Positions 29,125-64,000 are shown, counted from the first letter of the stretch. The stretch: DNA of 64,000 bases from an uncultured Myxococcales bacterium (GCA_903847405.1 CAINDP010000153.1:4121-68120), one strand, 5' to 3'. Notes: generated by a model from the sequence alone, not told the origin. Numbers and translations: made by a program.

Positions 29125-30492
29125 TCAGCCCAGGCCCAGTTTCTGCATCTTGTAGCGGATCGCCCGCTCGCCCAGGCCCAGGTCCCGGGCCGCGGCGCTC
29201 TGGTTCCCCCCGTGGCGCTCCAGCGCCCGGCGGATCAGGTCCCGCTCAAGGTCGGCCACCTGTTCCTCCAGGCCGCCCGTCGCCGGTTCCGAACGCGCGC
29301 CGGCCGGCGCCTGCCCCCCGGCCGGCGGGAAGTCCCCCGCCTCCAGGACCGGCCCGTCCGCCAGCACCAGGGCCCGCTCCACCATGTTTTCCAGTTCCCG
29401 GATGTTCCCCGGAAACGGCTGGCGGGCCAGTGCGTCCAGGGCCTCGTCCGACACGCCGGCGATCCCCGTCGTGGAAAGGTCCGCATGCTTCCCGACGAAG
29501 TGCGCCACCAGGGCGGGGATGTCCCCCGTCCGCTCCCGGAGGGCCGGCATCCGCAACGTCACGACGTTCAGGCGGTAGAACAGGTCCGCCCGGAACTCAC
29601 CCGTCCCGATCCGCGCCTCCAGGTCCCGGTGGGTGGCCGCGATCACCCGGGCGTCGGTTTCCAGCGGCTGGGTTCCCCCGACCCTCTCGAACCGCCCGGT
29701 CTGCAGCACGTTCAACAGTTTCACCTGGACCGACAGGGGGATGTCCCCGACCTCGTCCAGGAACAGGGTCCCGCCCTTGGCCAGTTCCAGACGCCCCTTC
29801 TTCTGCGCCGAGGCGCCCGTGAACGCCCCCTTCTCGTGTCCGAACAGTTCCGACTCGACCAGGGTTTCGCTGAGGACCGCGCAGTTCAGCGTCACGAAGG
29901 GCCCGTCCCGGCGGCTGGACAGGCGGTGCAGCGCCCGGGCCACCACCTCCTTCCCCGTCCCCGACTCGCCCAGGATCAGCACGGACGCACGGCTGGGCGC
30001 GACCTTGACCGCCAGTTCCTTGACCTGGCGCACGGCCGCACTGTCCCCCACCCAGTCCCCGAAGGCATCCGCCACCACGACCGCCTGGCGCAGCGACCGG
30101 TTCTCGCGGGACAGCCCCACCTTTTCCAGGGCCTTGGCCACCAGGGCCTCCAGGCGGGCCAGGTCCACCGGCTTGCCCAGGAAATCGTAGGCCCCGGCCC
30201 GCATGGACCGGACCGCATCCTCGACGGTTCCGTAGGCGGTCACCACGATGGCCTGCAGATCCGGATGGATCCGCCGCAGGTCGCCCAGCAGTTCGATGCC
30301 GTCGGGCCCGCCCAGCCGAAGGTCGGTGATCAGCAGGTCGATCGCCCGGTCCCGGGCCCGCTCCTGCGCCTCCGCTGCCGACCCGGCCTCCTCGACGTCA
30401 TAGCCCGCCTTCCGCAGGAAGCCCGCCAGCATCCGCCGCTGGGCCGCGTCGTCCTCGGCCACCAACAGGGTTCCCTTGTCACGTGCATTCAT
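29125..30492 (-). CDS. sigma-54-dependent response regulator (NtrC family: receiver + AAA+ + Fis-type HTH)
   Basis: Receiver (LLVAEDDAAQRRM...DLLITDLRLGG), Walker A GESGTGKE, GAFTGA motif, ESELFGHEKGAFTGA, C-terminal HTH; internal ATG MNARDKG overlaps HK stop (ATGA). Confidence 0.9.
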   Translation of the reverse strand: MNARDKGTLLVAEDDAAQRRMLAGFLRKAGYDVEEAGSAAEAQERARDRAIDLLITDLRLGGPDGIELLGDLRRIHPDLQAIVVTAYGTVEDAVRSMRAGAYDFLGKPVDLARLEALVAKALEKVGLSRENRSLRQAVVVADAFGDWVGDSAAVRQVKELAVKVAPSRASVLILGESGTGKEVVARALHRLSSRRDGPFVTLNCAVLSETLVESELFGHEKGAFTGASAQKKGRLELAKGGTLFLDEVGDIPLSVQVKLLNVLQTGRFERVGGTQPLETDARVIAATHRDLEARIGTGEFRADLFYRLNVVTLRMPALRERTGDIPALVAHFVGKHADLSTTGIAGVSDEALDALARQPFPGNIRELENMVERALVLADGPVLEAGDFPPAGGQAPAGARSEPATGGLEEQVADLERDLIRRALERHGGNQSAAARDLGLGERAIRYKMQKLGLG

Positions 30493-32793: not shown

Positions 32794-34122
32794 TCAGGGA
32801 AAGCGGATCGCGAACCGCCGCATCTTCCGCATCAAGGTGGCCTTGTGGATTCCCAGGGCCTGGGCCGTCCGCACGCGGTGTCCGCCATTTTCCGCCAGCG
32901 CGGCACGGATGACCACCGCCTGGGCCTGGTCGAAGGCGTCGGAGGTCGCGGGCCCGGGAGGCAGGTCCGGAAGCGGCCCCCGGGCGATTTCCGGCGGAAG
33001 GCAGCACACGTCGATGTTCGGCCCGCGGCACAGCACGAACGCGTGCTCGATCGCGTGTTCCAGTTCGCGGATGTTCCCGGGAAAGTCGTATCGCAGCAGG
33101 GCGTCCAGCGCGTTCGGCGTCACCCCCCGGATCTCCCGGCCGGTCTGGGCAGCGAACAACTGAATGAAGTGGCGGACCAGCAGGGGGATGTCTTCCTTGC
33201 GGTCCCGCAACGCCGGCAGTTCGATCCGCACGACGTTCAGGCGATAGAACAGGTCGTCCCGGAACCGGCCCTCGGCCATCAACTGCCGCAGGTCCCGGTT
33301 CGTCGCGGTGACGACCCGTGCATCCGCCTTCACCGTTCGCGAGGACCCCAGGGGCTGGTATTCCTTCTCCTGCAGCACCCTCAGCAGTTTCACCTGCAGG
33401 GCCGTCGAGATATCCCCGATTTCGTCCAGGAACAGGGTCCCCCCCTGGGCCGCCGCGAACCGCCCGATCCGATCGTGCCGGGCGTCGGTGAAGGCACCGG
33501 CCTTGTGGCCGAACAGTTCGGATTCCAGCAGCGTGTCCGGCAGGGCGGCGCAGTTCAGGGCAACGAAAGGCCGATCCCGACGAGGGCTGCCGTCGTGGAT
33601 CGCCCGGGCGAACAGTTCCTTGCCCGAACCGCTGGGTCCCTGGATCAGCACCGTGCTGCCGGCCGCTGCGATATCCGGCAGGACGCGCAGGATTTCCTGG
33701 ATCCGGTGGCTCTTGCTGACGATGTCGCCCACCCGGAACCGTTCGCGCAACTGGCGCCGCAACAGTTCCAGTTCGGACAGGTCGCGAAAGGTTTCGACCC
33801 CGCCCACGGCCCGTCCCGAGGCGTCCTTCAACACCGCCGTCGAGATGCTGAGGGGCTTTTCCGTACCATCCCGCGCGCGCATCGTCACCCGAACGTCCAC
33901 GGCCTCACGCCCCGAACCCATCGTCGATCGAAGGGCGCAGCGCCGCGCGCAGGCGTCCGTCCGAAAGACCTCGCTGCACTGCCGCCCGAGGGCCTCGTCG
34001 CGCGTGAAGCCGGTGATGGCGTGGGCGGCCCGGTTCCAGGACGTGATCCGCCACTGGTCATCCACGGTGAAGACGCCGTCGGCGATGGAGTCCAGGATGG
34101 GATCGGTGCGGTCAGTCGGCAT
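32794..34122 (-). CDS. sigma-54-dependent transcriptional activator with N-terminal PAS domain
   Basis: PAS (ILDSIADGVFTVDDQWRITSWNRAAHAITGF), AAA+ Walker A GPSGSGKE, ESELFGHKAGAFTDA, GAFTGA-like, C-terminal Fis HTH; divergent from mrp paralog. Confidence 0.85.
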   Translation of the reverse strand: MPTDRTDPILDSIADGVFTVDDQWRITSWNRAAHAITGFTRDEALGRQCSEVFRTDACARRCALRSTMGSGREAVDVRVTMRARDGTEKPLSISTAVLKDASGRAVGGVETFRDLSELELLRRQLRERFRVGDIVSKSHRIQEILRVLPDIAAAGSTVLIQGPSGSGKELFARAIHDGSPRRDRPFVALNCAALPDTLLESELFGHKAGAFTDARHDRIGRFAAAQGGTLFLDEIGDISTALQVKLLRVLQEKEYQPLGSSRTVKADARVVTATNRDLRQLMAEGRFRDDLFYRLNVVRIELPALRDRKEDIPLLVRHFIQLFAAQTGREIRGVTPNALDALLRYDFPGNIRELEHAIEHAFVLCRGPNIDVCCLPPEIARGPLPDLPPGPATSDAFDQAQAVVIRAALAENGGHRVRTAQALGIHKATLMRKMRRFAIRFP

Positions 34123-34229
34123 CGGAACCTCCGGCCACGGGCATGGTCGCAAAATCGCGACCACGCTTCAAGGATTGCTTTGATGCACGGATGCGAATAA
34201 CTTGCAGCCGCGGATAGCGGAGGCCCCCC

Positions 34230-35168
34230 ATGGGATGCGGTTGCGGCGACGGGCAGGACACAGGCGGGTGCGGCGGACACGAGCACGGACAGACCTTCCA
34301 GCCCGATGACATGGCCCGCGCGGCGATGCGGCGGATCCCCCACAAGATCCTGGTGATGAGCGGCAAGGGAGGCGTCGGCAAGACCACCGTGGCCGTCAAC
34401 CTGGCCTACGCACTGGCGGCCGCCGGCCACAAGGTCGGGATCGTGGACGCGGACCTGCACGGGCCCGACGTCCCGCTGATGACCGGGGTCGAGGGACTGC
34501 GGGCCCAGGCCAGCGACGAGGGGCTGATCCCCATCGACGCGCCGGGCGGCGTCCGCATCCTCTCGGTGTCGTCGTTCCTGGCCTCCCCTGACGCCCCGGT
34601 GATCTGGCGCGGCCCGGCCAAGGCCGGCGTCATCGCCCAGTTCCTGGGCCTGGCCGACTGGAAGGGCACCGACGTCCTGATCGTGGACTGCCCCCCCGGA
34701 ACCGGGGACGAACCCCTGTCCGTGGCCCAGATGATCCCGGATGCCGACGGCGTCGTGATCGTCACGTCGCCCCAGGGCGTGTCGCTGCTGGACAGCCGCA
34801 AGTGCGTGGGCTTCGCGCGCCAGATGGACCTGCCGGTGCTGGGGATCGTCGAGAATTTCTCGGGGTTCGAATGCCCCGGTTGCGGGCGCCGCATCGACCT
34901 GTTCAAGCGGGGCGGAGGCCGTCAGGCGGCGACCGACCTGGGCGTCCGTTTCCTGGGCAGCATCCCGATCACCGAGGCGATGGTCGAAGCGGGCGATTCG
35001 GGTCGGCCCCTGGTGGTTTCGACCCCCGACGATCCGGCGTCCCTGGTACTGACCGCGATGGCACAGGAACTGGTCGCGGACTGGGTGTCCGGCAGCGTCG
35101 GCGCGCCGATCGGCGAAGGGTGTTGCGGCAGTTGCGCGTGCCACGAACCGGTTCCCGGTCAGGACTGA
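34230..35168 (+). CDS. Mrp/ApbC/NBP35 family Fe-S cluster carrier ATPase with Cys/His-rich N- and C-termini
   Basis: Deviant Walker A SGKGGVGKTT, CPxC-type motif CPGCGRR; N-term MGCGCGDGQDTGGCGGHEHG and C-term CCGSCACHEP; SD GGAGG upstream. Confidence 0.85.
   Translation: MGCGCGDGQDTGGCGGHEHGQTFQPDDMARAAMRRIPHKILVMSGKGGVGKTTVAVNLAYALAAAGHKVGIVDADLHGPDVPLMTGVEGLRAQASDEGLIPIDAPGGVRILSVSSFLASPDAPVIWRGPAKAGVIAQFLGLADWKGTDVLIVDCPPGTGDEPLSVAQMIPDADGVVIVTSPQGVSLLDSRKCVGFARQMDLPVLGIVENFSGFECPGCGRRIDLFKRGGGRQAATDLGVRFLGSIPITEAMVEAGDSGRPLVVSTPDDPASLVLTAMAQELVADWVSGSVGAPIGEGCCGSCACHEPVPGQD
34305..35040. repeat. approx 740-bp segment about 90% identical to 46655..47395 (mrp paralog core)
   Basis: Direct nucleotide comparison of both mrp genes. 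Confidence 0.8.
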
Positions 35169-39669: not shown

Positions 39670-40086
39670 CTACTGGGCCTTCCCCTTGCGGATCTGGGCG
39701 TTGTCGCACACCCCGTCGCCGTCCGCGTCGACGAAGCCGGCGCCGTGCAGCCCCTTGCCCTTGCCTGCCGCCTGGCCGGCGCCCTTGCCCTGGCCCTTGC
39801 CCTTGGACATGCCCTTGCCCTGGCCGCCGGTACCCTTCTTGTCGCAGATCCCGTCGCCATCGGCGTCCACGAAGCCCGCGCCCGAGCCGTCCTTGAGCTG
39901 GACCTGGGCCTGGTCCTTGGCCTGGACCTGGGTCTGGTCCTTGGCCTGATCCTGGGCCTGGGTCGCCGTGCCCGACTGGACGCCCTGCCCCTTCCCCTTC
40001 ACCGCGTCCGCGTCATCCGCGAGCGCCACCGCGGGCAGGCCCGCCATTGCCACCACCAGGAACAGGCTCTTCAAGTTCGTCTTCAT
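39670..40086 (-). CDS. small secreted Lys/Gln/Gly-rich protein with two DxDGDGxCD motifs (paralog of 28515..28919)
   Basis: Signal MMKTNLKSLFLVVAMAGLPAVALA; GFVDADGDGICDKKG and GFVDADGDGVCDN. Confidence 0.6.
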   Translation of the reverse strand: MKTNLKSLFLVVAMAGLPAVALADDADAVKGKGQGVQSGTATQAQDQAKDQTQVQAKDQAQVQLKDGSGAGFVDADGDGICDKKGTGGQGKGMSKGKGQGKGAGQAAGKGKGLHGAGFVDADGDGVCDNAQIRKGKAQ

Positions 40087-45929: not shown

Positions 45930-46255
45930 CACGACGCCTCCTGTATGCGAATCTCGGCGGTGATCGCATCGCCCGACAGGCATTTCAGGACTTCGCCGAG
46001 TCGTTCGAGGTTCAACCTGTACCAGGCGAAGCCGCTGGCCCGCCGCACCTCGACCAGGCCGTTCATCCGCAGAATGGCCAGTTGGCCGGAAACGACGGCC
46101 TGGGGGGTTTTCAGGACCTCGGTCAACTGGCTGACGTTGGCCTCGCCTTCCCGCAGCACGGCCAGCAGTTCCAGCCGTATCGGGTGCGCCACGGCGCGCA
46201 GCAGGGTCGCCATCCGAACCGCCTTCGTCGGGTCCAGGGCCAGGGATCCCGTCAT
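45929..46255 (-). CDS. ArsR/SmtB family transcriptional regulator
   Basis: Winged HTH (LLRAVAHPIRLELLAVLREGEANVSQLTEVLKTPQAVVSGQLAILRMNGLVEV); stop overlaps cytochrome start. Confidence 0.8.
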   Translation of the reverse strand: MTGSLALDPTKAVRMATLLRAVAHPIRLELLAVLREGEANVSQLTEVLKTPQAVVSGQLAILRMNGLVEVRRASGFAWYRLNLERLGEVLKCLSGDAITAEIRIQEAS

Positions 46256-46393
46256 GGTCCACCTCCTTGCTCACCCAGCCGAGCGCAAAGCCGCCTCGGG
46301 TGCTTCCGACAGCCCCGAGCGCATCGCACGGGGTCCGGGACGGCACGGGGGTGAAGCAGGAGACGTGCCATGGACCGGCGATGTATCGAGATA

Positions 46394-46405: not shown

Positions 46406-46579
46406 CGACTTGCGCAGAGCAGCGTCCGACAGGGGCGCTCGCCAGAGGTCGCACCGATGCCTCCTCAGGTTGCAGTTCTGCGACCTTGATGGGAGTAAAC
46501 GCTGCGTTCCCGGTTGAAGGCTTGCGTTAGTGGGCAGATGCTAATAACTTCCCCTGGGTCAAACGGTGGAGGCTACCCC

Positions 46580-47938
46580 ATGGGCTGCGGTTTTCGAAAC
46601 GATCAAGGCGCGGACGGCATTGACGGAAACGGGCCCGAGGCGTTGGCCAAGCCCGACGACCTGGCCCGCGCTGCGATGCGTCTGATTCCCCATAAGGTGC
46701 TGGTGATGAGCGGGAAAGGGGGCGTCGGCAAGACGACGGTCGCCGTCAACCTCGCGTACGCCCTGGCTGCCGCCGGCCACAAGGTCGGGATCGTGGACGC
46801 GGACATGCACGGTCCCGATGTACCGCTGATGACCGGGATCGAGGGACTGCGGGCCGAGGCCAGCGACGAGGGGTTGATCCCCATCGAGGCTCCCGGCGGG
46901 GTCCGCGTCCTGTCGGTGTCCTCGTTCCTGACCTCCCCCGACGCCCCGGTGATCTGGCGCGGTCCGGCCAAGACCGGCGTCATCGCCCAGTTCCTGGGCC
47001 TGGCCGACTGGGAAGGCACCGAGGTGCTGATCGTGGACTGCCCCCCCGGAACCGGGGACGAACCCCTGTCCGTGGCCCAGATGATCCCGGACGCCGACGG
47101 CGTCGTGATCGTGACCTCCCCGCAAGGCGTGTCGCTGCTGGACAGCCGGAAGTGCGTCGGCTTCGCCCGCCAACTGGACCTGCCTGTGCTGGGCATCGTC
47201 GAAAACTTCTCGGGGTTCGCATGCCCGGGTTGCGGCCGCCGCATCGACCTGTTCAAGCGGGGCGGGGGCCAGCGCGCGGCGGCGGAACTGGGCATCCGCT
47301 TCCTGGGCAGCATTCCCATCACCGAGGCGATGGTCGAGGCAGGCGATTCGGGGCACCCCCTGGTGGCTTCGACCCCTGACGACCCCGCATCCCAGGCCTT
47401 GGCGGCCATCGCCCTGGCGATAACGGCCGACTGGGCGACCTCGGACGCCGTCGCGGCGGACTCCGATGCGGACCGGGCTCTTCCGCCGAAAGCCCTGGGC
47501 ACCCTGCGCCTCGGCGTGACGGCCGAGGACGACGCGGGCCTCGACGCCGTGATTTCCGGCCACTTCGGCCACGCTCCGGTCGTGATGGTGGTCGAGGTCC
47601 AGGACGGGAAGGTCCTGTCGGTGAAGCCGGTGGTCAACCCCGGCGCGACCAACCACCAGCCGGGCCAGATGCCCCGATTCCTGAAGAGCCTGGACGTGGA
47701 CGTGGTGCTGACGGGAACGATGGGCGAGCACGCGAAGTCCATGTTCGACGCCTTCGGGATCAAGGTCGTAGGCGGAGCGGACGGCACGGTGGGCCAGGCC
47801 CTGAACGCCTGGATACGTGGGGATCTGGCTGTGTGGGTCCCCTGCGGAGCCCACGGACACCACGGCGGCGGGTGCGGCGGCCACGGGCATGATCACGCTG
47901 GCGGCGGTTGCGGAGGCCACACCTCCGGACAGGACTGA
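46580..47938 (+). CDS. Mrp/NBP35 family ATPase fused to C-terminal NifX/NifB-type (FeMo-cofactor-binding-like) domain and His/Gly/Cys-rich tail
   Basis: SGKGGVGKTT, CPGCGRR; C-terminal domain GHFGHAPVVMVVEVQDGKV...VDVVLTGTMGEHA; tail CGAHGHHGGGCGGHGHDHAGGGCGGH. Confidence 0.85.
   Translation: MGCGFRNDQGADGIDGNGPEALAKPDDLARAAMRLIPHKVLVMSGKGGVGKTTVAVNLAYALAAAGHKVGIVDADMHGPDVPLMTGIEGLRAEASDEGLIPIEAPGGVRVLSVSSFLTSPDAPVIWRGPAKTGVIAQFLGLADWEGTEVLIVDCPPGTGDEPLSVAQMIPDADGVVIVTSPQGVSLLDSRKCVGFARQLDLPVLGIVENFSGFACPGCGRRIDLFKRGGGQRAAAELGIRFLGSIPITEAMVEAGDSGHPLVASTPDDPASQALAAIALAITADWATSDAVAADSDADRALPPKALGTLRLGVTAEDDAGLDAVISGHFGHAPVVMVVEVQDGKVLSVKPVVNPGATNHQPGQMPRFLKSLDVDVVLTGTMGEHAKSMFDAFGIKVVGGADGTVGQALNAWIRGDLAVWVPCGAHGHHGGGCGGHGHDHAGGGCGGHTSGQD
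46655..47395. repeat. approx 740-bp segment about 90% identical to 34305..35040
   Basis: Direct nucleotide comparison. Confidence 0.8.
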
Positions 47939-54600: not shown

Positions 54601-55011
54601 TCAACCGACCGCCGGATCTTCCTCGGATTCGCCTTCGCACTTCGGGCAGGCCTCCGGCGCCTCGCCCGGAGTCGCGTGGATCCAGACGTCCCGACATCGT
54701 GGGCAATGGTAGTTGCGGCCGTCTGCGTTCGGGTCCAATCCCTCGATCCGCAACGCCTTGCCGTGGACCAGCGCGTCGGCCACCTTCCTGCGGGCGATCT
54801 CGACAACACGGGCGAACGTCTGGCGGGACACACCCATGATCTCGGACGCCTGCTGCTGGTACATCCCCTCCAGGTCCGCCAGGCGGATCGCCTCGAACTC
54901 ATCCAGTTCCAGCACCACTTCGTCGAGGGCCGACATCGGGATTCCGCGAGGCTTGTAGTACGTCGCGACGGGGGCGGCTCCCACGCGTCGGGGACACTTG
55001 GGTCTGGCCAT
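54601..55011 (-). CDS. DUF134 (UPF0251) DNA-binding protein with C-terminal CxxC...CxxC zinc ribbon
   Basis: MARPKCPRRV...YYKPRGIP...EAIRLADLEGMYQQQASEIMGVSRQTFARVVEIARRKVADAL matches DUF134; CPRCRD...CPKCEG ribbon. Confidence 0.7.
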   Translation of the reverse strand: MARPKCPRRVGAAPVATYYKPRGIPMSALDEVVLELDEFEAIRLADLEGMYQQQASEIMGVSRQTFARVVEIARRKVADALVHGKALRIEGLDPNADGRNYHCPRCRDVWIHATPGEAPEACPKCEGESEEDPAVG

Positions 55012-55016
55012 CGTAT

Positions 55017-55508
55017 TCACGCTCCTGGCGGACCGGCATCCGCGTCGCCGGCATTCTCGCCAGTCGCCGATGCGGTGTCCAGTTCGCTCCTGCACTGCCC
55101 TTCCCGATCCACGAAAACTCCCCGTCCCGTCGCCATGATCCGCTGGCCCTGCCGGGCCTCGGAACGCAGGCGATACAGCGGCGGGGCAGACTCCACGATC
55201 CACGCCTGCACCTGCGTCGGAACCTCCAGCGCCACCGGATGCCGGAACCGGACCTGCAGATCGCCCGTCACCGCGGCAATCCCGCGCGCCATCAGGCACT
55301 GCGCCATGGCGGAATCCAGGAGGGTCGCAACCACTCCACCCTGGGCCATTCCCGGGTAGCCCTCGAAGCGTGAATCCAGGTTCGCCCGTCCTGCCACCGT
55401 TCCATCCGGCCGAACGCCGCACAGGAATCCCAGGCCGTCCGCCCGGTCCGGCGAGCAGGCAAAGCAGTGGGGATGCAATGTCTCCCGCTTCCGGACGATG
55501 TTCTCCAA
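55017..55508 (-). CDS. PaaI/hotdog-fold thioesterase family protein
   Basis: LHPHCFACSP...GYPGMAQGGVVATLLDSAMAQC hotdog thioesterase pattern; start tentatively TTG 55506-55508. Confidence 0.5.
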   Translation of the reverse strand: MENIVRKRETLHPHCFACSPDRADGLGFLCGVRPDGTVAGRANLDSRFEGYPGMAQGGVVATLLDSAMAQCLMARGIAAVTGDLQVRFRHPVALEVPTQVQAWIVESAPPLYRLRSEARQGQRIMATGRGVFVDREGQCRSELDTASATGENAGDADAGPPGA

Positions 55509-55539
55509 CGGCGCCCTCCTTGAACACGCCCTGAAATTA

Positions 55540-55553
55540 TGGGCAAATGCCCC
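55540..55553. promoter_or_regulatory. palindromic motif GGGCA-AA-TGCCC (instance 1 of 3)
   Basis: Read directly; about 90 nt upstream of DUF1847 ATG 55644 and just upstream of divergent thioesterase start. Confidence 0.4.
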
Positions 55554-55643
55554 GCATTGTGCAACGATCAGGCACCGGGGCGCCCGTCGCCGGAGGAGGT
55601 TTTCTTCCGCCGGATGCCGGCCCCATCGCCGCACGGAGGTTCC

Positions 55644-56255
55644 ATGGCCCCGGATCCCATCGACCCGGTCCCGTTCGGTTGCCGCCACTGCGTGACGCGA
55701 GGCAGTTTCGTCGGCGGGAACGCCCGGACTCCCAGGGATTGCCCCACCACCACGCACCCGGAAACGTCGAAAGACGTGTCGGCATATCTGTCCCCGGAGC
55801 GCCAGGCCTTGATGCGGGTGGCGAACGACGCTCCCTTCGCCCCCGACGGCCGCCTGCGGAACCGGGTGGAGGAACTGGTCTTCTTCGCCCGGTCGCAGGG
55901 GATGCGACGCATCGGCGTGGCCTTCTGCGTTTCCCTTCTGAAGGAGGCCCAGGAACTGGGCCGGATCCTGGTCGCCGAGGGACTGGAGGTGGAACTGGTC
56001 TGCTGCCGCGTCGGGGCGGTGGACCATGACGAAATCGGCCTGCCCAAGGCGAACCCCGAAAAGTTCGCTGCCATCTGCAATCCCGTGGCCCAGGCACGCC
56101 TGCTGGACGAACGCGGGGTGGATCTGATCGTCCAGATGGGGCTGTGCATCGGCCACGACTTGATCCTGCAGCAGGAGGCCCGGGCGCCGGTCACGACCCT
56201 GGTGGTCAAGGACCGGGTGCTGGATCACCACACGATCCGGGCGTTGCGCCCATGA
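55644..56255 (+). CDS. DUF1847 family metal-binding protein
   Basis: Cys-containing N-terminus (FGCRHCV...), conserved DUF1847-like core; internal ATG (MAPDPIDP) preferred because GGGCAAATGCCC palindrome overlaps the longer ORF start at 55539. Confidence 0.5.
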   Translation: MAPDPIDPVPFGCRHCVTRGSFVGGNARTPRDCPTTTHPETSKDVSAYLSPERQALMRVANDAPFAPDGRLRNRVEELVFFARSQGMRRIGVAFCVSLLKEAQELGRILVAEGLEVELVCCRVGAVDHDEIGLPKANPEKFAAICNPVAQARLLDERGVDLIVQMGLCIGHDLILQQEARAPVTTLVVKDRVLDHHTIRALRP

Positions 56256-56284
56256 CGAGGCCCCACCCAACGGAGGATGATTCC

Positions 56285-57274
56285 ATGCGATTCCGAATCC
56301 ATCCCGCCTGGTGGCCGGTCCTGGCCCTGGCCAGCCCGGCATTGGTCCCCTGGCTGGCCATTCAGACAGGCCGCTTCGCCACGGGCAGAACTCGCGCGTT
56401 GCAGGTCAACAAGGACCGGGTGTCATCGGCCCTCCCCCTGGCGCTGCCCGTCCTGGACGACCTTCGGCTGACCGTGCTGGTCGATCACGCGCACGAAACG
56501 GGGTTCCTGGGTGACGCAGGCGTCTCGTACGTGATGGCCACTCCGTCCGGCACGACCTTGATGGACGTGGGTTTCGGTCCCGGAACCCCCAGCCTTGCAC
56601 ACAACGCGTCCAGGCTGGGGTTCCAGGCTGCAGGCATCGACAGTGTCGTCATCACGCACCTGCACCTGGATCACATGGGCGGGCTGCGTGCCGCGCGGGC
56701 GCATCGGGTCGAGTGGCCGGAGGGCTTCGTTCCAAGGCCCGGGACCCCCTGCTTCCTGCCGGCTCCGGCGGACGCGCCTGGGCTGGACGCGACGCTGGTC
56801 GAAGGTCCCCGCCTGCTGCCGGGTGGCCTGGCAACCACGGGTCCCCTGGCGCGCATGCTCTGTCTGACGGGGTGGATCGAGGAGCAGGCGCTGGTCGCGA
56901 AGCGGAGGGATGGCGGTCTGGTCGTGGTCACGGGATGCGGTCACCCCACGCTCGAAACCATCCTGGCCATGGTGCGCCGAATGGATCCGGCGAAAGTCCA
57001 CACGGTGGTGGGCGGGCTGCATTTCCCGATCACCGGGTCCCGGATCAAGCGGCTGGGAATCCAGTTCCAGCAGGTCATCGGGACCGGAAAGTGCTGGTGG
57101 GCGGGTGTCACCGACGCGGACCTGACCGCCACGATCGCGACCCTGAACGCCGCCGGCGTGCAACGGCTGCTCCTGTCGGCGCACGACACGTGCGACCACG
57201 CCATCGAACGCCTGCGACGCGAGACACATGCCGAGGTCGAGGTGGTGCAAGCGGGTGCCAGTTATATCCTCTGA
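56285..57274 (+). CDS. MBL-fold metallo-hydrolase
   Basis: Signal-like N-terminus; metallo-beta-lactamase HxHxDH motif ITHLHLDHMGG. Confidence 0.75.
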   Translation: MRFRIHPAWWPVLALASPALVPWLAIQTGRFATGRTRALQVNKDRVSSALPLALPVLDDLRLTVLVDHAHETGFLGDAGVSYVMATPSGTTLMDVGFGPGTPSLAHNASRLGFQAAGIDSVVITHLHLDHMGGLRAARAHRVEWPEGFVPRPGTPCFLPAPADAPGLDATLVEGPRLLPGGLATTGPLARMLCLTGWIEEQALVAKRRDGGLVVVTGCGHPTLETILAMVRRMDPAKVHTVVGGLHFPITGSRIKRLGIQFQQVIGTGKCWWAGVTDADLTATIATLNAAGVQRLLLSAHDTCDHAIERLRRETHAEVEVVQAGASYIL

Positions 57275-57335
57275 CGTGAGTTCCCCAGGGACCGTGGGCG
57301 ACTTCACGGAACCATCCAGCCGTTGACTTCTTTTT

Positions 57336-57348
57336 GGGCAAATGCCAA
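57336..57348. promoter_or_regulatory. palindromic motif GGGCA-AA-TGCCA (instance 2 of 3)
   Basis: TTTTGGGCAAATGCCAATATCC about 200 nt upstream of nifX-like operon start. Confidence 0.35.
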
Positions 57349-57538
57349 TATCCATCCCCGAGACCGGAGCCTGGGCAACGGCGTTACGAGGGCCCGGTCG
57401 ATCGAGGGTTCCGGATAGAGGGAGGCAGACATGCCAGGTCATGATGGAACAGGTCCCCTGGGGCAGGGACCGGGCGCAGGGCGCGGCAGGTGGCGTCACG
57501 GGCAGGCAAGGCCGGCCGTTGAAGATGGAGAAATCCCG

Positions 57539-57958
57539 ATGAGCAATCGAACGATCATCGCGCTCCCGGTCGAGGACGACGCCGGCCTGGAATCCGACGT
57601 CTGCCAGCATTTCGGCCATGCGGCGGGGTTCGCCCTCGTCGAAGTCGATGGTGCGCAGATTGCCTCCTGCCGCGTGGTCAGGAACCCAATGGCGGAAGAC
57701 CACCAACCGGGGATGCTGCCGGGGTTCGTCCATTCCACCGGCGCGAACGTCCTGCTGGCGGGCGGCATGGGCCCGCGGGCCGTTGACCTGCTGCATGGAT
57801 TCGGGATCGACGTGGCCACCGGCGCCCAGGGGCGCGTGCGCGACGTCGTCACCGCGTACCTGGCCGGGAACCTCACCGGCATCACGCCCTGCGACCACAG
57901 CCACGACCATGGCGGCGGATGCGGCGATCACACGCGCCATCACGGAGGTCCGACATGA
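57539..57958 (+). CDS. NifX/NifB-C-terminal-type dinitrogenase FeMo-cofactor-binding family protein (COG1433-like) with His/Cys-rich tail
   Basis: MSNRTIIALPVEDDAGLESDVCQHFGHAAGFALVEV...VLLAGGMGPRAVDLL; tail CDHSHDHGGGCGDH. Confidence 0.7.
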   Translation: MSNRTIIALPVEDDAGLESDVCQHFGHAAGFALVEVDGAQIASCRVVRNPMAEDHQPGMLPGFVHSTGANVLLAGGMGPRAVDLLHGFGIDVATGAQGRVRDVVTAYLAGNLTGITPCDHSHDHGGGCGDHTRHHGGPT

Positions 57959-58299
57959 AGGTGGCCGTTTCGATCGAGGAAGGAAAGGGCATGACCGCCC
58001 CGGTGTGCCAGACCTTTGGCCGTGCCCCGTGGTTCGTCGTGGTCGATGACACGACCGGCGGAATGACCTTCGTGGCCAATACGGCCGCATCAGGGGCCCA
58101 CGGCGCCGGTACAGGCGCCGCGTCCTTGATGGCCCGGCACGGCGTCGACGCGGTCATCTCCGGCCGCTTCGGACCCAACGCCTTCGAAGCCCTCCACCTT
58201 GCCCAGATCCGGATGTTCGTCTGCCTTACCGACCCGACGGCCCAGGAGGCCCTGGAACAGTTCCGTGCAGGCGCGCTGCAGGAAGTCGCTGCAACCTGA
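57955..58299 (+). CDS. NifX/NifB-C-terminal-type family protein (second copy)
   Basis: MKVAVSIEEGKGMTAPVCQTFGRAPWFVVVD...VDAVISGRFGPNAFEAL; ATGA overlap with upstream gene. Confidence 0.7.
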   Translation: MKVAVSIEEGKGMTAPVCQTFGRAPWFVVVDDTTGGMTFVANTAASGAHGAGTGAASLMARHGVDAVISGRFGPNAFEALHLAQIRMFVCLTDPTAQEALEQFRAGALQEVAAT

Positions 58300-58316
58300 C
58301 GGCGTGAAGGAGTCCC

Positions 58317-59165
58317 ATGCGGATCGTGGTCGCCAGCGGAAAGGGAGGCACCGGGAAGACGCTGGTTTCGACGTCGCTGGCACTGCACTGGGCCAGGCAG
58401 GGCCAGGAATCCTGCTACATCGATGCCGACGTCGAGGAGCCGAACGGCCACCTGTTCCTGCAACCCGCAATTGATGCAACGCGCCGCTTCACCATGCCGG
58501 TGCCCCGCCTGGAGGGGACGTGCGAGGCGTGCGGGCGCTGCCAGGAACTCTGCGCCTTCCACGCGATCCTGGCGATCAAGGGACGCGTACTGGTCTTCCC
58601 CGAACTGTGCCATTCCTGCGGCGCATGCGTCCTGGCCTGCCTTCCGGGGGTGCTGCACCTGGCACCCCGCGAGATCGGCACGATCCGCGAAGGCCGCGTC
58701 GGAAGCCTGCGCTTCATCGACGGCACCCTGGACGTGGGCGAGGCCCGCGCCGCGCGCCTGACGGAAGGCGTGGCCTCCACGCCTTGCGGGGGACGGGTCA
58801 TCGTGGATGCACCGCCGGGGACCTCCTGTCCCGCAGTGGCGACACTCCGCGGCGCGGACATCGCCGTACTGGTCACCGAACCGACGCCGTTCGGCTTGCA
58901 TGACCTGGGCCTTGCGATCCGCATGTGCCGTTCCCTGGGAGTCCCCCCCGTCGTCGTGGTCAACCGGTCCGACCTCGGAGGCGACGTGGAAGCCGCCCTG
59001 GCCGAGTTCGGCGCCCCGGTGGTCGGGCGGATTCCCTTCGACCCCAGGATTGCCGTGGCGACCGCGAAAGGGGAAATCGCGATCGATGTCGTCCCGCGAT
59101 TCGCGGAAACCGTGGCCGGGATTGCCCTGGCCGTGGAGCGCGCCGCCCTGGAGGCCCGCTCATGA
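58317..59165 (+). CDS. MinD/ParA-superfamily P-loop ATPase with inserted double 4Fe-4S ferredoxin domain (COG1149-like)
   Basis: ASGKGGTGKT deviant Walker A; ferredoxin cysteines CEACGRCQELCAFHAI and CHSCGACVLACLPGV. Confidence 0.8.
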   Translation: MRIVVASGKGGTGKTLVSTSLALHWARQGQESCYIDADVEEPNGHLFLQPAIDATRRFTMPVPRLEGTCEACGRCQELCAFHAILAIKGRVLVFPELCHSCGACVLACLPGVLHLAPREIGTIREGRVGSLRFIDGTLDVGEARAARLTEGVASTPCGGRVIVDAPPGTSCPAVATLRGADIAVLVTEPTPFGLHDLGLAIRMCRSLGVPPVVVVNRSDLGGDVEAALAEFGAPVVGRIPFDPRIAVATAKGEIAIDVVPRFAETVAGIALAVERAALEARS

Positions 59166-60073
59166 AACAGGTCGTCGTACTGAGTGGCAAGGGGGGCACG
59201 GGAAAGACGTCGCTGACGGCGGCACTGGTTCGCCTGGCCGGCCGATGCGTGGCGGTGGATGCCGACGTCGATGCGGCGAACCTTGCCCTGCTGATGCCCG
59301 GCCAGGACGACCCGTGGAGGACGTTCACGGCGGGGCGCCGGGCCCGGATCGACCCGGACCTTTGTGTCGGGTGCATGCGCTGCTCCGAGGAATGTCCGTT
59401 CAAGGCCATTCGCATGGGAGCGGCCTGGATTCCGGTTGTCGACCCGTTGGCCTGCGAGGGCTGTGGCATCTGCAAGCAGTGGTGCACACCGGGTGCCATC
59501 CGGTTCGAGGGCCATGAAGCCGGGGTCTGGACCGTGCGCAGGACCGTCTGGGGCCCGTTGGTGCACGCGGCCCTCCATGTCGGCGAGGACAACTCGGGGA
59601 AACTGGTGGCCCAGGTCCGGAAGGAAGGCGCCCGCCTGGGGTCCGCCGAGAACATCGACCTCGTTCTCGTCGACGGCCCCCCCGGAATCGGCTGCCCCGT
59701 CCATGCGGCGATCGGCGGCGCGGACCTGGTCGTGGCGATCACGGAACCCGGCGTTGCGGCGGCCCACGACCTGGAACGCCTGCTGGACCTGGCGCGCTGG
59801 TTCCACGTACCGGCGGCCATCGTGCTGAACAAGGCGGACCTGCATCCAGCGGCCTCTGCGGACCTGCGGTTCATGGCGGCCGCCCGGGGCGTCCCGGTCC
59901 TGGTGGATCTGCCGTTCCTGCCCGCGGTTCCACGCGCCCTGGCCCGGGGACGGTGTCTTCTGGAGGTGGAGGGCCTGCAGGAACCCCTGGACGCCTGCTG
60001 GGCCGGCATCCAGCGAATGCTGGCCGGGGCGCCGGCCCCAGCGGAAGAGTGCAGACCCGCGGAGCCGACATGA
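59162..60073 (+). CDS. MinD/ParA-superfamily P-loop ATPase with inserted 4Fe-4S ferredoxin domain (second copy)
   Basis: LSGKGGTGKT; CVGCMRCSEECPFKAI and CEGCGICKQWCTPGAI; ATGA overlap with upstream gene. Confidence 0.8.
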   Translation: MKQVVVLSGKGGTGKTSLTAALVRLAGRCVAVDADVDAANLALLMPGQDDPWRTFTAGRRARIDPDLCVGCMRCSEECPFKAIRMGAAWIPVVDPLACEGCGICKQWCTPGAIRFEGHEAGVWTVRRTVWGPLVHAALHVGEDNSGKLVAQVRKEGARLGSAENIDLVLVDGPPGIGCPVHAAIGGADLVVAITEPGVAAAHDLERLLDLARWFHVPAAIVLNKADLHPAASADLRFMAAARGVPVLVDLPFLPAVPRALARGRCLLEVEGLQEPLDACWAGIQRMLAGAPAPAEECRPAEPT

Positions 60074-60250: not shown

Positions 60251-60727
60251 ATGAGTGACAAGGCGTTCCAGGATTTCTACCCGGACGATGTGGCCTGGTG
60301 CTACGGCTGCGGGCGCCTGAACCCGCCCGGCCTGCACGTGCGCAGTTTCTGGGACGGGGACGAAGCCGTATGCCGGTACACGCCGGGTCCGCAGCATATC
60401 GCGATCCCCGGGTACGTGTATGGCGGGCTGATCGCATCGCTGATCGACTGCCACGGCACCGGGACTGCCGCCGCCGCCGCGTACCGTGCCCAGGGGCGGC
60501 CCATGGACAGCGAGCCGCCGCTGCGCTTCGTGACGGCTTCGCTGCATGTCGACTACCTGCGCCCGACGCCCATGGGAGTGACGCTGGAAATCCGGGCACG
60601 GGTCAAGGAGATCAAGGGCCGCAAGGTGGTCGTCGAGGAGCGGCTCCTGGCCGATGGCGAGGTCTGCGCCCGGGGCGAGGTCGTCGCCGTCCAGGCTCCG
60701 AAGGAACTCTTCGCAGCGAAAGCGTGA
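60251..60727 (+). CDS. hotdog-fold thioesterase-like protein
   Basis: GYVYGGLIASLIDCHGTGTAAAAAY...ASLHVDYLRPTPMG pattern of PaaI/4HBT-like proteins; start MSDKAF preferred (ORF from 60227). Confidence 0.55.
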   Translation: MSDKAFQDFYPDDVAWCYGCGRLNPPGLHVRSFWDGDEAVCRYTPGPQHIAIPGYVYGGLIASLIDCHGTGTAAAAAYRAQGRPMDSEPPLRFVTASLHVDYLRPTPMGVTLEIRARVKEIKGRKVVVEERLLADGEVCARGEVVAVQAPKELFAAKA

Positions 60728-61516: not shown

Positions 61517-62305
61517 TCAGGCACGCGCCGCAGCACGAACGCGCGACCGTGACGCCAGCAGCGCTGCCAACAGCAGCAGCAACCCCAGCGCGACCTGCGC
61601 TGCGGCGACCAGGTGCGCATCCCGGAGGCCGAACAGACGATCCGGCCGCTCATCGGGGCGACGGATGTACTCAATCAGGAAGCGAAGCACCCCCGAACCC
61701 ACCAGGTACAGGGCGAACAGGACCCCTGGCGCGACGCGTGCACGGAGCCGCCACAGTACGCCGAACAGCAGGAAGTTCACCGCCGCCTCGTACAGCGGCG
61801 TAGGGTGAACCGCCAGTTCCGTCGGGACGATCCCCTGGGGGAACGGCATGCACAGGGCCTCGTCCAGGTCGCCCGGTTTGCAGGGCAACCCATAGCAACC
61901 GTCGCCCGACAGGAAGCACCCCAGCCGGCCGAATGCGTACCCCGACGCCAGCATGGGAGCAACGGCGTCGGTCATGGCGCGCAGCGGAAGTCGTTTCCAC
62001 AGGAAGAACCCGATGTTCAGGGCCGCCGCCAGAATCAGGCCCCCGTGCCACGTCAACCCGGAACCGGAAAAAAAGTCCGACCAGGAAAATGACGGCGTCT
62101 CGGTGAGAACGTAGGCCAGTTTCGCACCCAGAAAGCCACCCAGCACGCTCAACAGGACGATCGTATCGGCGTGGCGACGATCGAAGCCGCGCCGGCCCAG
62201 TTCCCTGGCAAGCAGCCATTGTGCTGTGAAGAACCCGAGGGCCGCCATGAGGCCGTAGGTCCCGATCGGGAAGGGTTCACGCATCAAGTAAGGCCACATC
62301 GCCAT
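61517..62305 (-). CDS. lgt: prolipoprotein diacylglyceryl transferase
   Basis: Lgt signature regions (GxxxYGLMxxLGF, HGGL, GRLGCF, RxxxYEA); start uncertain (alternative ATG 62299 or TTG 62335). Confidence 0.8.
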   Translation of the reverse strand: MAMWPYLMREPFPIGTYGLMAALGFFTAQWLLARELGRRGFDRRHADTIVLLSVLGGFLGAKLAYVLTETPSFSWSDFFSGSGLTWHGGLILAAALNIGFFLWKRLPLRAMTDAVAPMLASGYAFGRLGCFLSGDGCYGLPCKPGDLDEALCMPFPQGIVPTELAVHPTPLYEAAVNFLLFGVLWRLRARVAPGVLFALYLVGSGVLRFLIEYIRRPDERPDRLFGLRDAHLVAAAQVALGLLLLLAALLASRSRVRAAARA

Positions 62306-62369
62306 CTCCCAACCGGTGAAGAAACGGTCAACCAACCGGCAACAGACCGCGGCGACGATAGCAGTTTAC

Positions 62370-62383
62370 AGGGCATATGCCCA
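62370..62383. promoter_or_regulatory. perfect palindrome GGGCATATGCCC (instance 3 of 3 of GGGCA-N2-TGCCC motif)
   Basis: Read directly; 40-70 nt upstream of lgt start. Confidence 0.4.
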
Positions 62384-62450
62384 TTACAAATTGATCATGC
62401 CGATTTGCCGCGGCCGACACGAAAGCCCGTGCCGGCGGGCACGCCCCCCG

Positions 62451-63476
62451 TCATCCCATCCACACGCCGTTGCGGATCCTCCACAACAGCGCGGGACCGG
62501 CCCCGAGGACAAGGAAGACCAGGACGGCCAATGCCACGCGCAAGGCCGCGCCGCGCACCCGGTCTGCCACGGGCCGGGCCAGTTGCGGGAACCGTCGGCC
62601 GATCGTCCCCGCCAGCGCGGCCCCACCGGCGTCCAGGGCCACCACGGCCAGGGCGCCGAACAGCGGGTAGCCGACGGCGCCGTGCCTGCCCGCAAACAGG
62701 CACCAGGGGCAGTGATGGGCCAGGACGCCGTAGTGGTAGGACGATAGATCGCGAACCAGGACAACGGCCGCTGCGGGGATCCATCCGGCCGCCAGGATCG
62801 CCAGCGCCTGCGCCGTGAAGGGCCGGCGTGCGACGCGTGGGACCGCCGCCATCGCCCCTCCCAGAGCGACCAGGATCGCCGCACCGACCAGTACCGCAGG
62901 CAGCAGCCAGGTCCCGTCCGGCTCGGCGCTCGTCCCGGCGTTCCGGACACCGTCGTACACGACGGAGCAGCAGTCCACCGGGCCCTGCCCTTCCAGGCCC
63001 CTCAGCGCATCCAGGGTGCGCCAGACCGCCATGGTCACCAGGGGAATCGCCAGCAGAATCGCCCGGCCGGACACCGTGATCAGCGGCGCCTCCGGCCGGG
63101 TCCGATCCAGCCGATCCAGGAGGTGCCACGCGCCCAGCACGCCGACCGAAGCCATCCGCAACGCGAATGCCTGCGGGCCGTCCCCCCCCATGGCCTGGAG
63201 GACCCCCGTTCCGCACATGGCGCCCGGCACGATTCCCGGAAGAACCGAGGCCACGGCCAGGACAAAGGCCAGGGTCGACGCCAGGAACAGGAACGTCGCG
63301 ACCCGGGCCCGCAGGGCCGCGGATTCGGCCCGGCGCTCCAGGCGGACCTGCCGGGCGGTGGGGGAGGCGGGCGCCCACGACAGGACGACGGCCAGCGCAT
63401 CCAGGCCCGCCGCCAGGATCAGCAGGACCGACAGGCTGTCCAGGACCACCACGGCCAGCACGATCGGATGCGGCAT
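62451..63476 (-). CDS. hypothetical polytopic membrane protein, possibly permease partner of downstream ABC ATPase
   Basis: Approx 8 predicted TM helices; no confident family; start ATG (MPHPIVLAVV) overlaps ABC ATPase stop. Confidence 0.35.
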   Translation of the reverse strand: MPHPIVLAVVVLDSLSVLLILAAGLDALAVVLSWAPASPTARQVRLERRAESAALRARVATFLFLASTLAFVLAVASVLPGIVPGAMCGTGVLQAMGGDGPQAFALRMASVGVLGAWHLLDRLDRTRPEAPLITVSGRAILLAIPLVTMAVWRTLDALRGLEGQGPVDCCSVVYDGVRNAGTSAEPDGTWLLPAVLVGAAILVALGGAMAAVPRVARRPFTAQALAILAAGWIPAAAVVLVRDLSSYHYGVLAHHCPWCLFAGRHGAVGYPLFGALAVVALDAGGAALAGTIGRRFPQLARPVADRVRGAALRVALAVLVFLVLGAGPALLWRIRNGVWMG

Positions 63477-64000
63477 CAGCGCGCCTCCGCCAACCGGCCG
63501 TCGTCCAGGCGCCACCCCAGGTCCGTCGCGCCGGAAAGGCGAGCGTCATGCGTGGCCACAACGACGACGGCCCCCCTGCGCGCCGCAGCCTGGACCGCGT
63601 CCACGACGCGCATCACCCCCGCGTCGTCCTGGTGCGCAGTCGGCTCGTCCAGCAGCAGGTACCTCGGCGCCCCGACCAGCGCCCGGGCAAGGCCGACACG
63701 CTGGCGCTCGCCGCCGGAAATCGACGACGGGTGCCGGTCGGCGACATGCGCCGCCCCGGCGGCCTCCAGGGCCGCGTGCGCCTGTTCCACCGCCGCACGG
63801 ATGTCGCGTTCCAGGGGGATGCGCGGGGCCATGACGTTTTCCAGAACCGTCAGGCCCTCCAGGAACACCGGCACCTGGAGCCCCAGGCCGACCTGCCGGC
63901 GCCAGCGATCGCGATGCGCCGCGATCCACGACGACACCGGCTGGCCCTCCGCGAGGACCCGTCCCTCGTCCGGCCGCAGCAGCGACGCCAGCACGTGGAG
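63476..64000 (-). CDS. ABC transporter ATP-binding protein, C-terminal part (N-terminus beyond window end)
   Basis: ABC signature ISGGERQRVGLARAL, Walker B LLLDEPTAHQD, H-loop VVVATHD. Confidence 0.75.
   Translation of the reverse strand, partial: LHVLASLLRPDEGRVLAEGQPVSSWIAAHRDRWRRQVGLGLQVPVFLEGLTVLENVMAPRIPLERDIRAAVEQAHAALEAAGAAHVADRHPSSISGGERQRVGLARALVGAPRYLLLDEPTAHQDDAGVMRVVDAVQAAARRGAVVVVATHDARLSGATDLGWRLDDGRLAEAR

Follow-up and report, generated by a model that had tools for sequence, protein, structure and literature searches.

The 64,000-nucleotide stretch of DNA from an uncultured Myxococcales bacterium analysed here (GCA_903847405.1, CAINDP010000153.1:4121-68120; hereafter the window) carries, at positions 57431-60073, a run of four genes that appears, from sequence comparison, to be orthologous to the Desulfovibrio operon for the Orange Protein (ORP). 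These genes code for two NifX-fold proteins (NifX-A and NifX-O) and two MinD/ParA-type ATPases (ATPase 1 and ATPase 2). The window also encodes an Mrp-NifX fusion resembling MrpORP, a second Mrp/NBP35 protein and an OrpR-like sigma-54 activator (enhancer-binding protein, EBP); it therefore contains an ORP-type system, the parts of which are scattered over 27 kb. A preliminary description had regarded the genes as a functionally unassigned neighbourhood, a label which no longer applies to a locus orthologous to the published Desulfovibrio ORP complex (PMC6345978, PMC8359166). Taken as a whole, the core operon is probably best explained as an ORP-type metallocluster system with a sigma-70 promoter repressed by a DUF134 protein. 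The coordinates of all features are listed in Table 1.

The ORP complex of D. vulgaris Hildenborough, encoded by the operons orp3-5 and orp7-9, comprises Orp3 and Orp4, both of them MinD-like and each bearing two [4Fe-4S] motifs, together with Orp5, Orp8 and MrpORP (PMC6345978). Orp8 is the orange protein, which binds a Mo-Cu-S cluster (PMC6345978, PMC4641369, PMC8359166), and MrpORP (Orp9) is an Fe-S carrier that passes clusters to the Orp proteins (PMC6345978). The ORP of D. gigas holds the cluster [S2MoS2CuS2MoS2]3- non-covalently (cited in PMC6345978). In Desulfovibrio, the orp genes are transcribed from sigma-54 promoters controlled by the redox-sensing activator OrpR (PMC4641369, PMC8359166).

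The reference locus came from Desulfovibrio sp. X2, a strain in which the ORP shares 73% identity with that of D. gigas. The gene order of this locus is EBP, two small Gly/Arg/Cys-rich genes, ORP, ATPase, ATPase and NifX, and the best BLASTP matches between the window and this locus follow the gene order. Indeed, (i) NifX-O is 39% identical to the ORP of this strain, above its match to the other NifX protein encoded there, (ii) ATPase 1 is 44% identical to the first ATPase, (iii) ATPase 2 is 42% identical to the second, and (iv) NifX-A is 36% identical to the 126-aa NifX protein. Among solved structures, NifX-O matches the D. gigas ORP (PDB 2WFB) over the whole domain (E 5.8e-15) as well as MTH1175 (E 5e-15), and the nearest PDB matches of NifX-A are PH0822/TM1816 (2yx6, 1o13; E 1e-24). 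NifX-A shares its subtype with the MrpORP C-terminal domain (NF041136), and NifX-O belongs to another. The ORP of Megalodesulfovibrio (Desulfovibrio) gigas shares its fold family with NifX-O (120 aa vs 114 aa), but the identity is only about 39%, and a Mo-Cu-S cluster on the window protein would be a prediction.

In ATPase 1, the deviant Walker A motif GKGGTGKT is intact and a 2x[4Fe-4S] ferredoxin domain is inserted; its invariant Cys residues are C69, C75, C79, C98, C101, C104, C108 and C171. Two CxxCxxCxxxC motifs are present in each of ATPase 1 and ATPase 2, and all eight ferredoxin Cys residues are intact. As in D. vulgaris, an ORP-type NifX protein is followed by two 2x[4Fe-4S] MinD-type ATPases, and an extra NifX-fold protein and a nearby Mrp-NifX fusion are likewise encoded. 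However, the D. vulgaris genes form two divergent operons around orpR, whereas the window has one co-directional operon and dispersed mrp genes; the former rely on sigma-54/OrpR/IHF promoters, the latter on a sigma-70-type promoter with a predicted DUF134 operator. The window furthermore has additional genes for DUF1847, metallo-beta-lactamase-fold (MBL) and hotdog-fold proteins, and its host is labelled Myxococcota-like, after the names of the nearest metagenome-assembled relatives, whereas D. vulgaris belongs to the Desulfovibrionales. Finally, the DUF5320-like gene is only a fused vestige in the window: its first ~33 codons (MPGHDGTGPLGQGPGAGRGR..., a weak DUF5320 match) are joined in frame to NifX-A at 57431-57538. 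According to DNA alignment, two related loci, L005 and L003, carry a full Gly/Arg-rich (DUF5320-like) gene at this place; relative to them, the vestige has an internal deletion of ~130-190 bp and has lost the conserved Cys of the GRGRC motif.

The Mrp-NifX fusion combines an Mrp/NBP35 P-loop domain, in which a CPGC motif is found, with a NifX (Di-Nase) domain and a tail rich in His and Cys; its best NCBIfam match is MrpORP (NF041136), covering model positions 2-364 of 365. With MrpORP (Orp9/DVU2109, Dde_3202) this protein has in common the Mrp/NBP35 and Di-Nase domains, a deviant Walker A and a CXXC (CPGC) motif; the window protein differs by an N-terminal extension, a His/Cys/Gly-rich C-terminal tail and its distance of 11 kb from the ORP operon. 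The second Mrp/NBP35 protein aligns with NF041136 positions 1-249. Since its P-loop domain is nearly identical to that of the fusion and the regions upstream of the two genes (34175-34230 and 46522-46580) are homologous, a recent duplication is pointed to by these sequences; one copy kept the NifX domain and the His/Cys/Gly tail, and the other ends in GEGCCGSCACHEP. The two Mrp/NBP35 genes of the preliminary description, one with a fused NifX domain, do exist. Unlike in the MrpORP reference, the near-identical paralogue without a NifX domain adjoins the OrpR-like gene, which is divergent from it.

OrpR is recognised by three conserved Cys in its PAS domain (C52, C61 and C65 in D. vulgaris Hildenborough), by an acidic amino acid at C+2 and by the motif GAFTDA (PMC8359166, PMC4641369). 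All of these are found in the EBP of the window (C48-x8-C57-x3-C61, E50 and GAFTDA), which shares 58% identity with its OrpR-like counterpart in Desulfovibrio sp. X2. It therefore has the Cys triad, the Glu at C+2 and the unusual GAFTDA of OrpR (DVU2106), a [4Fe-4S]-PAS sigma-54 activator, and a palindrome with GC arms and an A-T centre, similar to that of OrpR, adjoins its gene. Unlike OrpR, it is encoded 23 kb from the ORP-type operon, and no sigma-54 promoter precedes this operon or the adjacent mrp gene. The 20-bp palindrome in question (TGGTCGC-AAAATC-GCGACCA, 34144-34163) is located between the EBP gene and mrp; its architecture is like that of the published OrpR site GGGCGYRTTTTGCGCCC, but there is no sigma-54 promoter after it. 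A near-consensus sigma-54 promoter, TGGCACGTCTCCTGCT (46355-46370, minus strand, 11/12 positions), is present upstream of a minus-strand arsR/cytochrome operon, with an inverted repeat (AGGTCGCA...TGCGACCT, ~46445-46485) further upstream. This operon encodes an ArsR-type protein (45932-46270), an octahaem tetrathionate-reductase-family cytochrome (541 bits, TIGR04315), a multihaem-cytochrome b fusion and YeeE/TsuA-like transporters with a rhodanese domain. Its promoter might be the target of the OrpR-like EBP.

The ORP-type operon itself is preceded by a sigma-70-type promoter composed of a -35 element TTGACT (57323-57328), a 17-nt spacer and a -10 element CAATAT (57346-57351). No TGGC-N8-TGC or GG-N10-GC site above 7/12 was found upstream of the operon, nor was a well-scoring GG-N10-GC sigma-54 site found upstream of DUF1847, of the hotdog gene or of either mrp gene. 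Upstream of the operon there was also no match to the OrpR site GGGCGYRTTTTGCGCCC, the palindrome at 34144-34163 being the sole related element. A sigma-54/OrpR-dependent promoter of the operon was consequently rejected, as none was found and the only strong sigma-54 site, TGGCACGTCTCCTGCT, serves the arsR/cytochrome operon. The spacer of the operon promoter contains a near-palindrome, TGGGCAAATGCC, that runs into the -10 element. The element at 57323-57351, the Shine-Dalgarno sequence and the start of the DUF5320-like gene are conserved in register in L005 and L003, and the same promoter/palindrome element is found, in register, upstream of the DUF134 gene of another related locus, L006. In the window, the promoter of the hotdog-DUF134 operon (TGCACA, 16-nt spacer, CATAAT) contains the 12-mer TGGGCAAATGCC at 55540-55551, identical to the 12-mer at 57335. 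This predicted partial operator copy scores 4.9 bits with the position weight matrix (PWM) described below, which is consistent with a half-site.

When the motif was widened across phyla, an 18-mer palindrome with the consensus TATGAGCATATGCTCATA was obtained. With up to 4 mismatches, it occurs in 13/21 loci with a DUF134 gene (DUF134+) against 8/65 loci without one (DUF134-; Fisher p=2e-5), and shuffling of the DUF134+ loci gave sites in 0-3 loci. Almost all sites in the DUF134+ loci lie between genes, immediately upstream of either the operon's first gene or DUF134; most, though not all, sites of the DUF134- loci are likewise placed. Several loci have two tandem sites. A PWM was derived from 21 sites in loci outside the window, and the 64-kb window was scored with it. 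The best match (18.9 bits) is the predicted operator in the operon promoter (TTTGGGCAAATGCCAATA, at 57333), the second (13.5 bits) lies at 62368, upstream of lgt, and the third (11.3 bits) at 46529-46546, upstream of the MrpORP-like gene; the maxima over 20 shuffled windows were at most 13.6 bits. The second match is a perfect intergenic palindrome, GGGCATATGCCC (62368-62385), upstream of lgt (61517-62299, minus strand), and because of it the sequence suggests that the putative DUF134 regulon may extend past the ORP genes.

A C-terminal CPRC...CPKC ribbon is present in the DUF134 protein of the window, and alignment with 21 DUF134 proteins of related loci revealed that many of them share this Cys4 (CxxC...CxxC) ribbon. 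Near ORP-type operons, DUF134 and sigma-54 EBP genes are nearly mutually exclusive (DUF134 only in 11 loci, EBP only in 14, both in 1). Moreover, DUF134 and ORP domains are fused in single open reading frames (ORFs) in four loci (L061, L068, L083 and L084) labelled Desulfobacterales, Syntrophorhabdus or uncultured delta proteobacterium. In the literature searched, no functional account of DUF134, UPF0251 or DUF5320 was found. From this comparative genomics we infer that the DUF134 protein is probably the operator-binding regulator of the operon. It is most likely a repressor, as the predicted site covers the -10 element, and what it senses is likely linked to the cluster bound by ORP. In a more general form, DUF134/UPF0251 would be a dedicated metal-cluster-sensing repressor of ORP-type operons, acting via an 18-20 bp palindrome (TTATGAGCATATGCTCATAA) over the -10 element in a sigma-70 regime that replaces OrpR/sigma-54 in many phyla, with the ORP fold itself as the sensor, as the natural DUF134-ORP fusions suggest; the chances of this general form being correct appear evenly balanced.

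The system could accordingly be pictured as follows. By orthology, the two ATPases with deviant Walker A motifs would form an ATP-dependent heterodimer carrying four [4Fe-4S] clusters, which the MrpORP-like carrier encoded 11 kb upstream may load. Both NifX-fold proteins would hold a labile metal-sulfide cluster and join the ATPases in a complex that could build, store or deliver a metal-sulfur cofactor under reducing conditions. The operon would be read from a sigma-70-type promoter, not from a sigma-54/OrpR promoter as in Desulfovibrio. The divergently encoded DUF134 protein would bind as a repressor to the operator over the spacer and -10 element, and to the partial copy in its own promoter, and may let go in response to the condition of either the ORP-bound cluster or its own Cys4 ribbon. 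A useful analogy is provided by NifX, NafY and the C-terminal domain of NifB, in which the Nitro_FeMo-Co fold holds a metal-sulfur cluster non-covalently and is partnered with a dimeric Fe-S P-loop ATPase of the NifH-type SIMIBI kind (MinD/NifH/Mrp class). The analogy to NifH with NifX/NafY concerns the mechanism only: no nitrogenase context and no NifEN-like scaffold were seen among the window ORFs examined, and the window's ATPases have inserted 2x[4Fe-4S] ferredoxin domains, whereas NifH-type proteins have one bridging cluster.

Several observations weigh against this picture. The Mrp-NifX fusion scores 388.3 bits against a cut-off of 450 for NF041136 and is not adjacent to the operon, and in the closest relative contig the NifX-ATPase operon is missing from this place. 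The operator of the window is degenerate, with 5 mismatches to the 18-mer consensus, and its copy in the DUF134 promoter reaches only 4.9 bits. The operator is present in 8 loci with no DUF134 gene in the fetched stretch, where a weak-threshold search with hidden Markov models (HMMs) revealed no missed DUF134 gene, and 8/21 DUF134+ loci have no operator site; the pairing of regulator and operator is therefore statistical. DUF134 may also act as an activator instead of a repressor. Lastly, as to function, the ORP literature offers only 'putatively involved in cell division' and in vitro Fe-S and Mo-Cu binding (PMC6345978).

This wording, the polar localisation of MrpORP (PMC6345978), the label 'cell division' in a regulon table (PMC4641369) and the MinD/ParA-like deviant Walker A would all fit a spatial or cell-division positioning system formed by the MinD-like ATPases, with the NifX-fold proteins as accessories, which is the role first put forward for the ORP complex in Desulfovibrio. 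This is nonetheless unlikely: the septum-site MinD models TIGR01968/TIGR01969 give 37-64 bits against cut-offs of 202-213, no MinC or MinE was seen among the annotated ORFs of the window, in which no search was aimed at them, and the eight invariant ferredoxin Cys and the obligatory pairing with NifX-fold and Mrp carriers point to metallocluster chemistry. That chemistry could also consist, instead of cofactor biosynthesis, in the sequestration or detoxification of thiometallates or metal(loid) sulfides (e.g. thiomolybdate-Cu) in sulfidic habitats, tied to the surrounding sulfur/thiol-redox island. Indeed, the D. gigas ORP binds its Mo-Cu cluster non-covalently; the cluster is found, in the window and in relatives, beside genes for YeeE/TsuA-like transporters, rhodaneses, an SQR-like flavoprotein, the octahaem tetrathionate-reductase-family cytochrome, an ArsR regulator and DsbA/DsbD; and DUF1847 relatives are fused to or adjoin S-adenosylmethionine (SAM) methyltransferases and an SBF-family (PF01758) transporter. 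We consider this doubtful, since the co-location with sulfur genes was seen in only a few related genomes and is unquantified, the core operon occurs in many different contexts in a survey of 80 loci, and two ATPases with four [4Fe-4S] clusters exceed the needs of simple sequestration. A role of the NifX-like proteins in nitrogenase FeMo-cofactor biosynthesis, like that of classical NifX/NafY, is barely conceivable. Both proteins have the Pfam Nitro_FeMo-Co domain, but their best structural relatives are ORP, MTH1175, PH0822 and TM1816 and not NifX/NafY, no nifHDK, nifEN or nifB was found among the window ORFs examined, and the same operon is present in organisms not known as diazotrophs (Planctomycetota, Omnitrophota; nif content unchecked). 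A metallocofactor or Fe-S handling role, in line with the preliminary description, is the reasonable reading. For the suggested service to the neighbouring radical SAM or cytochrome genes, the only recurring observation is proximity to sulfur and thiol-redox genes.

As regards its origin, the locus had been proposed to be horizontally acquired. In favour of a recent island comprising the seven genes originally listed and transferred from a strict anaerobe, the cluster has a patchy, cross-phylum spread, the module order differs among close relatives, and G+C at third codon positions (GC3) is slightly lower than in other window genes (0.826 vs ~0.87, p=0.006). However, the flanking dsbA and lgt genes also have the lower GC3, and overall composition matches the rest of the window, as measured by GC content (0.683 vs 0.691 for other window genes) and codon-usage likelihood (-0.917 vs -0.914); in this comparison a few control genes were mis-framed, so that the spread of the control is inflated. 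Myxococcales/Myxococcota- and Anaeromyxobacteraceae-labelled metagenome-assembled genomes (MAGs) carry close homologues, and the operon, under the same promoter and operator, is present in the 69-71% identical relatives as well as in further MAGs labelled Myxococcales/Myxococcota. The ORFs flanking the block, in which no scan for mobile elements, tRNA genes or repeats was made, showed no integrase, transposase or tRNA. Nothing thus indicates a recent acquisition, and such an island is very unlikely, while an ancient, patchy transfer of the ORP-type system among anaerobes is plausible.

The GC content is ~69% throughout the window, and the gene calls on identical public metagenome contigs match the window genes. 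All domains of the seven genes initially described were found by Pfam and NCBIfam scans, so that the family assignments hold. The genes are, however, not consecutive, as a hotdog gene (55017-55508) is located between DUF134 and DUF1847, and they do not form a single operon, since a 264-bp gap with a promoter separates the MBL gene from NifX-A. DUF134 and the 163-aa hotdog gene are divergent in transcription from the remaining genes, and the locus counts eight or nine genes, distributed over three or more transcription units (Table 1). Translational coupling was first claimed for all four genes of the core operon; direct reading of the sequence shows both ATGA overlaps (57955-57958 and 59162-59165), each preceded by GGAGG, while NifX-O and ATPase 1 do not overlap and are separated by a 17-nt gap with AAGGAG.

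Table 1. Genes and regulatory elements of the ORP-type system and of its surroundings (positions refer to the window, except in the last row, where they refer to the loci named)
Feature	Position	Strand or placement	Basis
OrpR-like sigma-54 activator (EBP), PAS-AAA+-helix-turn-helix (HTH)	32794-34122	minus	sequence features
Second Mrp/NBP35 paralogue, Cys-rich tail, without NifX domain	34230-35168	plus	NF041136 325 bits
MrpORP-like Mrp-NifX fusion	46580-47938	plus	NF041136 388.3 bits
DUF134/UPF0251 HTH protein, 136 aa	54601-55011	minus	PF02001 83.2 bits, cut-off 27
Hotdog-fold (4HBT, THEM4-like) protein, 163 aa	55017-55508	minus	PF03061 29.7 bits; public gene calls agree
Promoter of hotdog-DUF134 operon, sigma-70-like	55536-55563	minus	promoter scan
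DUF1847 Cys-rich protein, 203 aa	55644-56255	plus	PF08901 141 bits, cut-off 25
MBL protein, 329 aa	56285-57274	plus	PF00753 44 bits; HLHLDH motif
Promoter of NifX-ATPase operon, sigma-70-type	57323-57351	plus	conserved in register in relatives
Predicted DUF134-type operator TTTGGGCAAATGCCAATA	57333-57350	overlaps spacer and -10	PWM 18.9 bits
NifX-A (NifX#1), PH0822/TM1816 type, His/Cys-rich tail	57431-57958 (NifX domain from 57539)	plus	PF02579 68 bits
NifX-O (NifX#2), ORP-type NifX-fold protein, Orp8 orthologue, 114 aa	57955-58299	plus	PF02579 72 bits
MinD/ParA-type ATPase 1, 282 aa, Orp3/Orp4-type	58317-59165	plus	Pfam CbiA/ParA + Fer4
MinD/ParA-type ATPase 2, 303 aa, paralogous partner of ATPase 1	59162-60073	plus	Pfam CbiA/ParA + Fer4
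Second hotdog-fold (4HBT) protein, 158 aa	60251-60727	plus	PF03061 43.7 bits
DUF134 HTH + ORP-type NifX fusion ORFs	L061 662-1459; L068 8881-9678; L083 8936-9694; L084 8875-9711

The conservation of the neighbourhood in anaerobes, noted from the outset, is borne out: at least 548 GTDB species representatives match the operon search, with 55% identity in the best match, and the phyla among the listed matches include Myxococcota, Planctomycetota, Desulfobacterota, Bacillota, NC10, Chloroflexota, Acidobacteriota and Zixibacteria, among others. The MinD-Fer4 ATPase family alone has at least 8,000 homologues at E<=1e-10. For the survey of neighbourhoods, 80 species loci were annotated with locally built HMMs, and counts are given out of the 39 loci in which the anchor gene has 4 kb or more of sequence on each side. 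The two ATPase genes are adjacent in nearly all loci, barring contig ends or intervening DNA. An ORP-type NifX gene is found near the pair in 38/39 loci and an A-type NifX gene in 34/39, followed by DUF5320 (25/39), Mrp (16/39), sigma-54 EBP (15/39), MBL (14/39, within 6 kb), DUF134 (12/39), the Mrp-NifX fusion (6/39) and the specific hotdog subfamily (5/39). DUF1847 adjoins the cluster in 4/80 loci.

Among near relatives, the modules move around. L003 (69% identical) has MrpORP, then DUF134 and hotdog, then DUF5320-like, NifX, NifX, ATPase and ATPase genes, without DUF1847 or MBL; L005 (71% identical) is similarly arranged and also lacks these two genes; and the closest contig (DUF1847 86% identical) has MrpORP, then DUF134 and hotdog, then a pyridoxal-phosphate enzyme, DUF1847 and MBL. 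The seven genes thus do not constitute one module, as had been assumed. Because DUF1847 and MBL are absent or rearranged in near relatives, they are not part of the core, and the DUF1847, MBL and hotdog proteins are recurrent but optional, modular accessories. The notion that DUF1847 and MBL are a private insertion was softened, given that other phyla, too, repeatedly have MBL, hotdog and DUF1847 genes in the vicinity of the operon and that a NifX-DUF1847 fusion exists.

The 163-aa hotdog gene, with a TTG start and an AAGGAGG Shine-Dalgarno sequence, abuts DUF134 and is co-operonic with it. The nearest solved structures of its product are THEM4/5, and close homologues (E 1e-24 to 1e-32) adjoin Mrp/NifX genes in ~10 other loci; in relatives, a hotdog gene is also found downstream of the operon, in the same position as 60251-60727. 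The MBL protein has an N-terminal hydrophobic segment and is named by JGI after the MJ0301/K06897 family; its nearest solved structures are the uncharacterised MBLs 7dck, TM1679 and 2p4z. An assignment to subclass B3 metallo-beta-lactamases was rejected, as the NCBIfam equivalog model gave 39 bits against a cut-off of 240 and only the generic MBL fold is recognised.

With 884 representatives in 1.84 billion clusters, the DUF1847 family is small; eight Cys and a His-Asp pair are conserved in it. The conserved residues of the window protein are C13, C16, C33, C95, C121, C145, C168, H171 and D172, and the near-invariant C21 is Ser in this protein and throughout its close subfamily. Its AF2 model is confident (pLDDT 87); a Foldseek search of the PDB with this model yielded only generic Rossmann-like matches (TM <=0.37), and a profile search of the PDB sequences yielded no match. 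One representative protein, P0378, fuses Nitro_FeMo-Co to DUF1847. More broadly, DUF1847 relatives (P0378, P0256, P0266 and P0278) include fusions to Nitro_FeMo-Co, SAM methyltransferase, DUF4405 and TrmO_N, as well as tandem duplications, and DUF1847 genes elsewhere adjoin methyltransferase, DsbD/thioredoxin, rhodanese and SBF-transporter genes.

Two further features of the window were observed. A 341-aa membrane protein without a Pfam match and then an ABC ATPase are encoded at 62451-64000 (minus strand), in a block that in relatives is continued by FtsX and NosL and keeps its linkage with the DUF1847/hotdog genes. Two small secreted proteins, paralogues of each other (39673-40083, minus, and within 28515-29234, minus), have Lys/Gly/Gln-rich repeats and the motif FVDADGDG(I/V)CD twice; the scanned copy has no Pfam match.

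In summary, the locus is a further member of the known ORP system, in a putatively DUF134/sigma-70-regulated form absent from the literature searched. Its gene content is ordinary for an anaerobe, and the predicted DUF134 operator gives a concrete starting point for tests. The ORP system is widespread in anaerobes, and 20 years of work have gone into it in one genus; its placement among ORP systems gives the locus a concrete experimental framework in place of an unassigned status. The recurrent accessories (hotdog, COG1237-type MBL, DUF1847 and DUF5320) delimit extra activities that the system may need. The predicted operator offers a cheap and direct handle on the role of DUF134/UPF0251 and on the signal governing ORP expression outside Desulfovibrio, and, if the proposed role is true, DUF134 would define a sigma-70 regulatory regime in place of OrpR/sigma-54 across many phyla.

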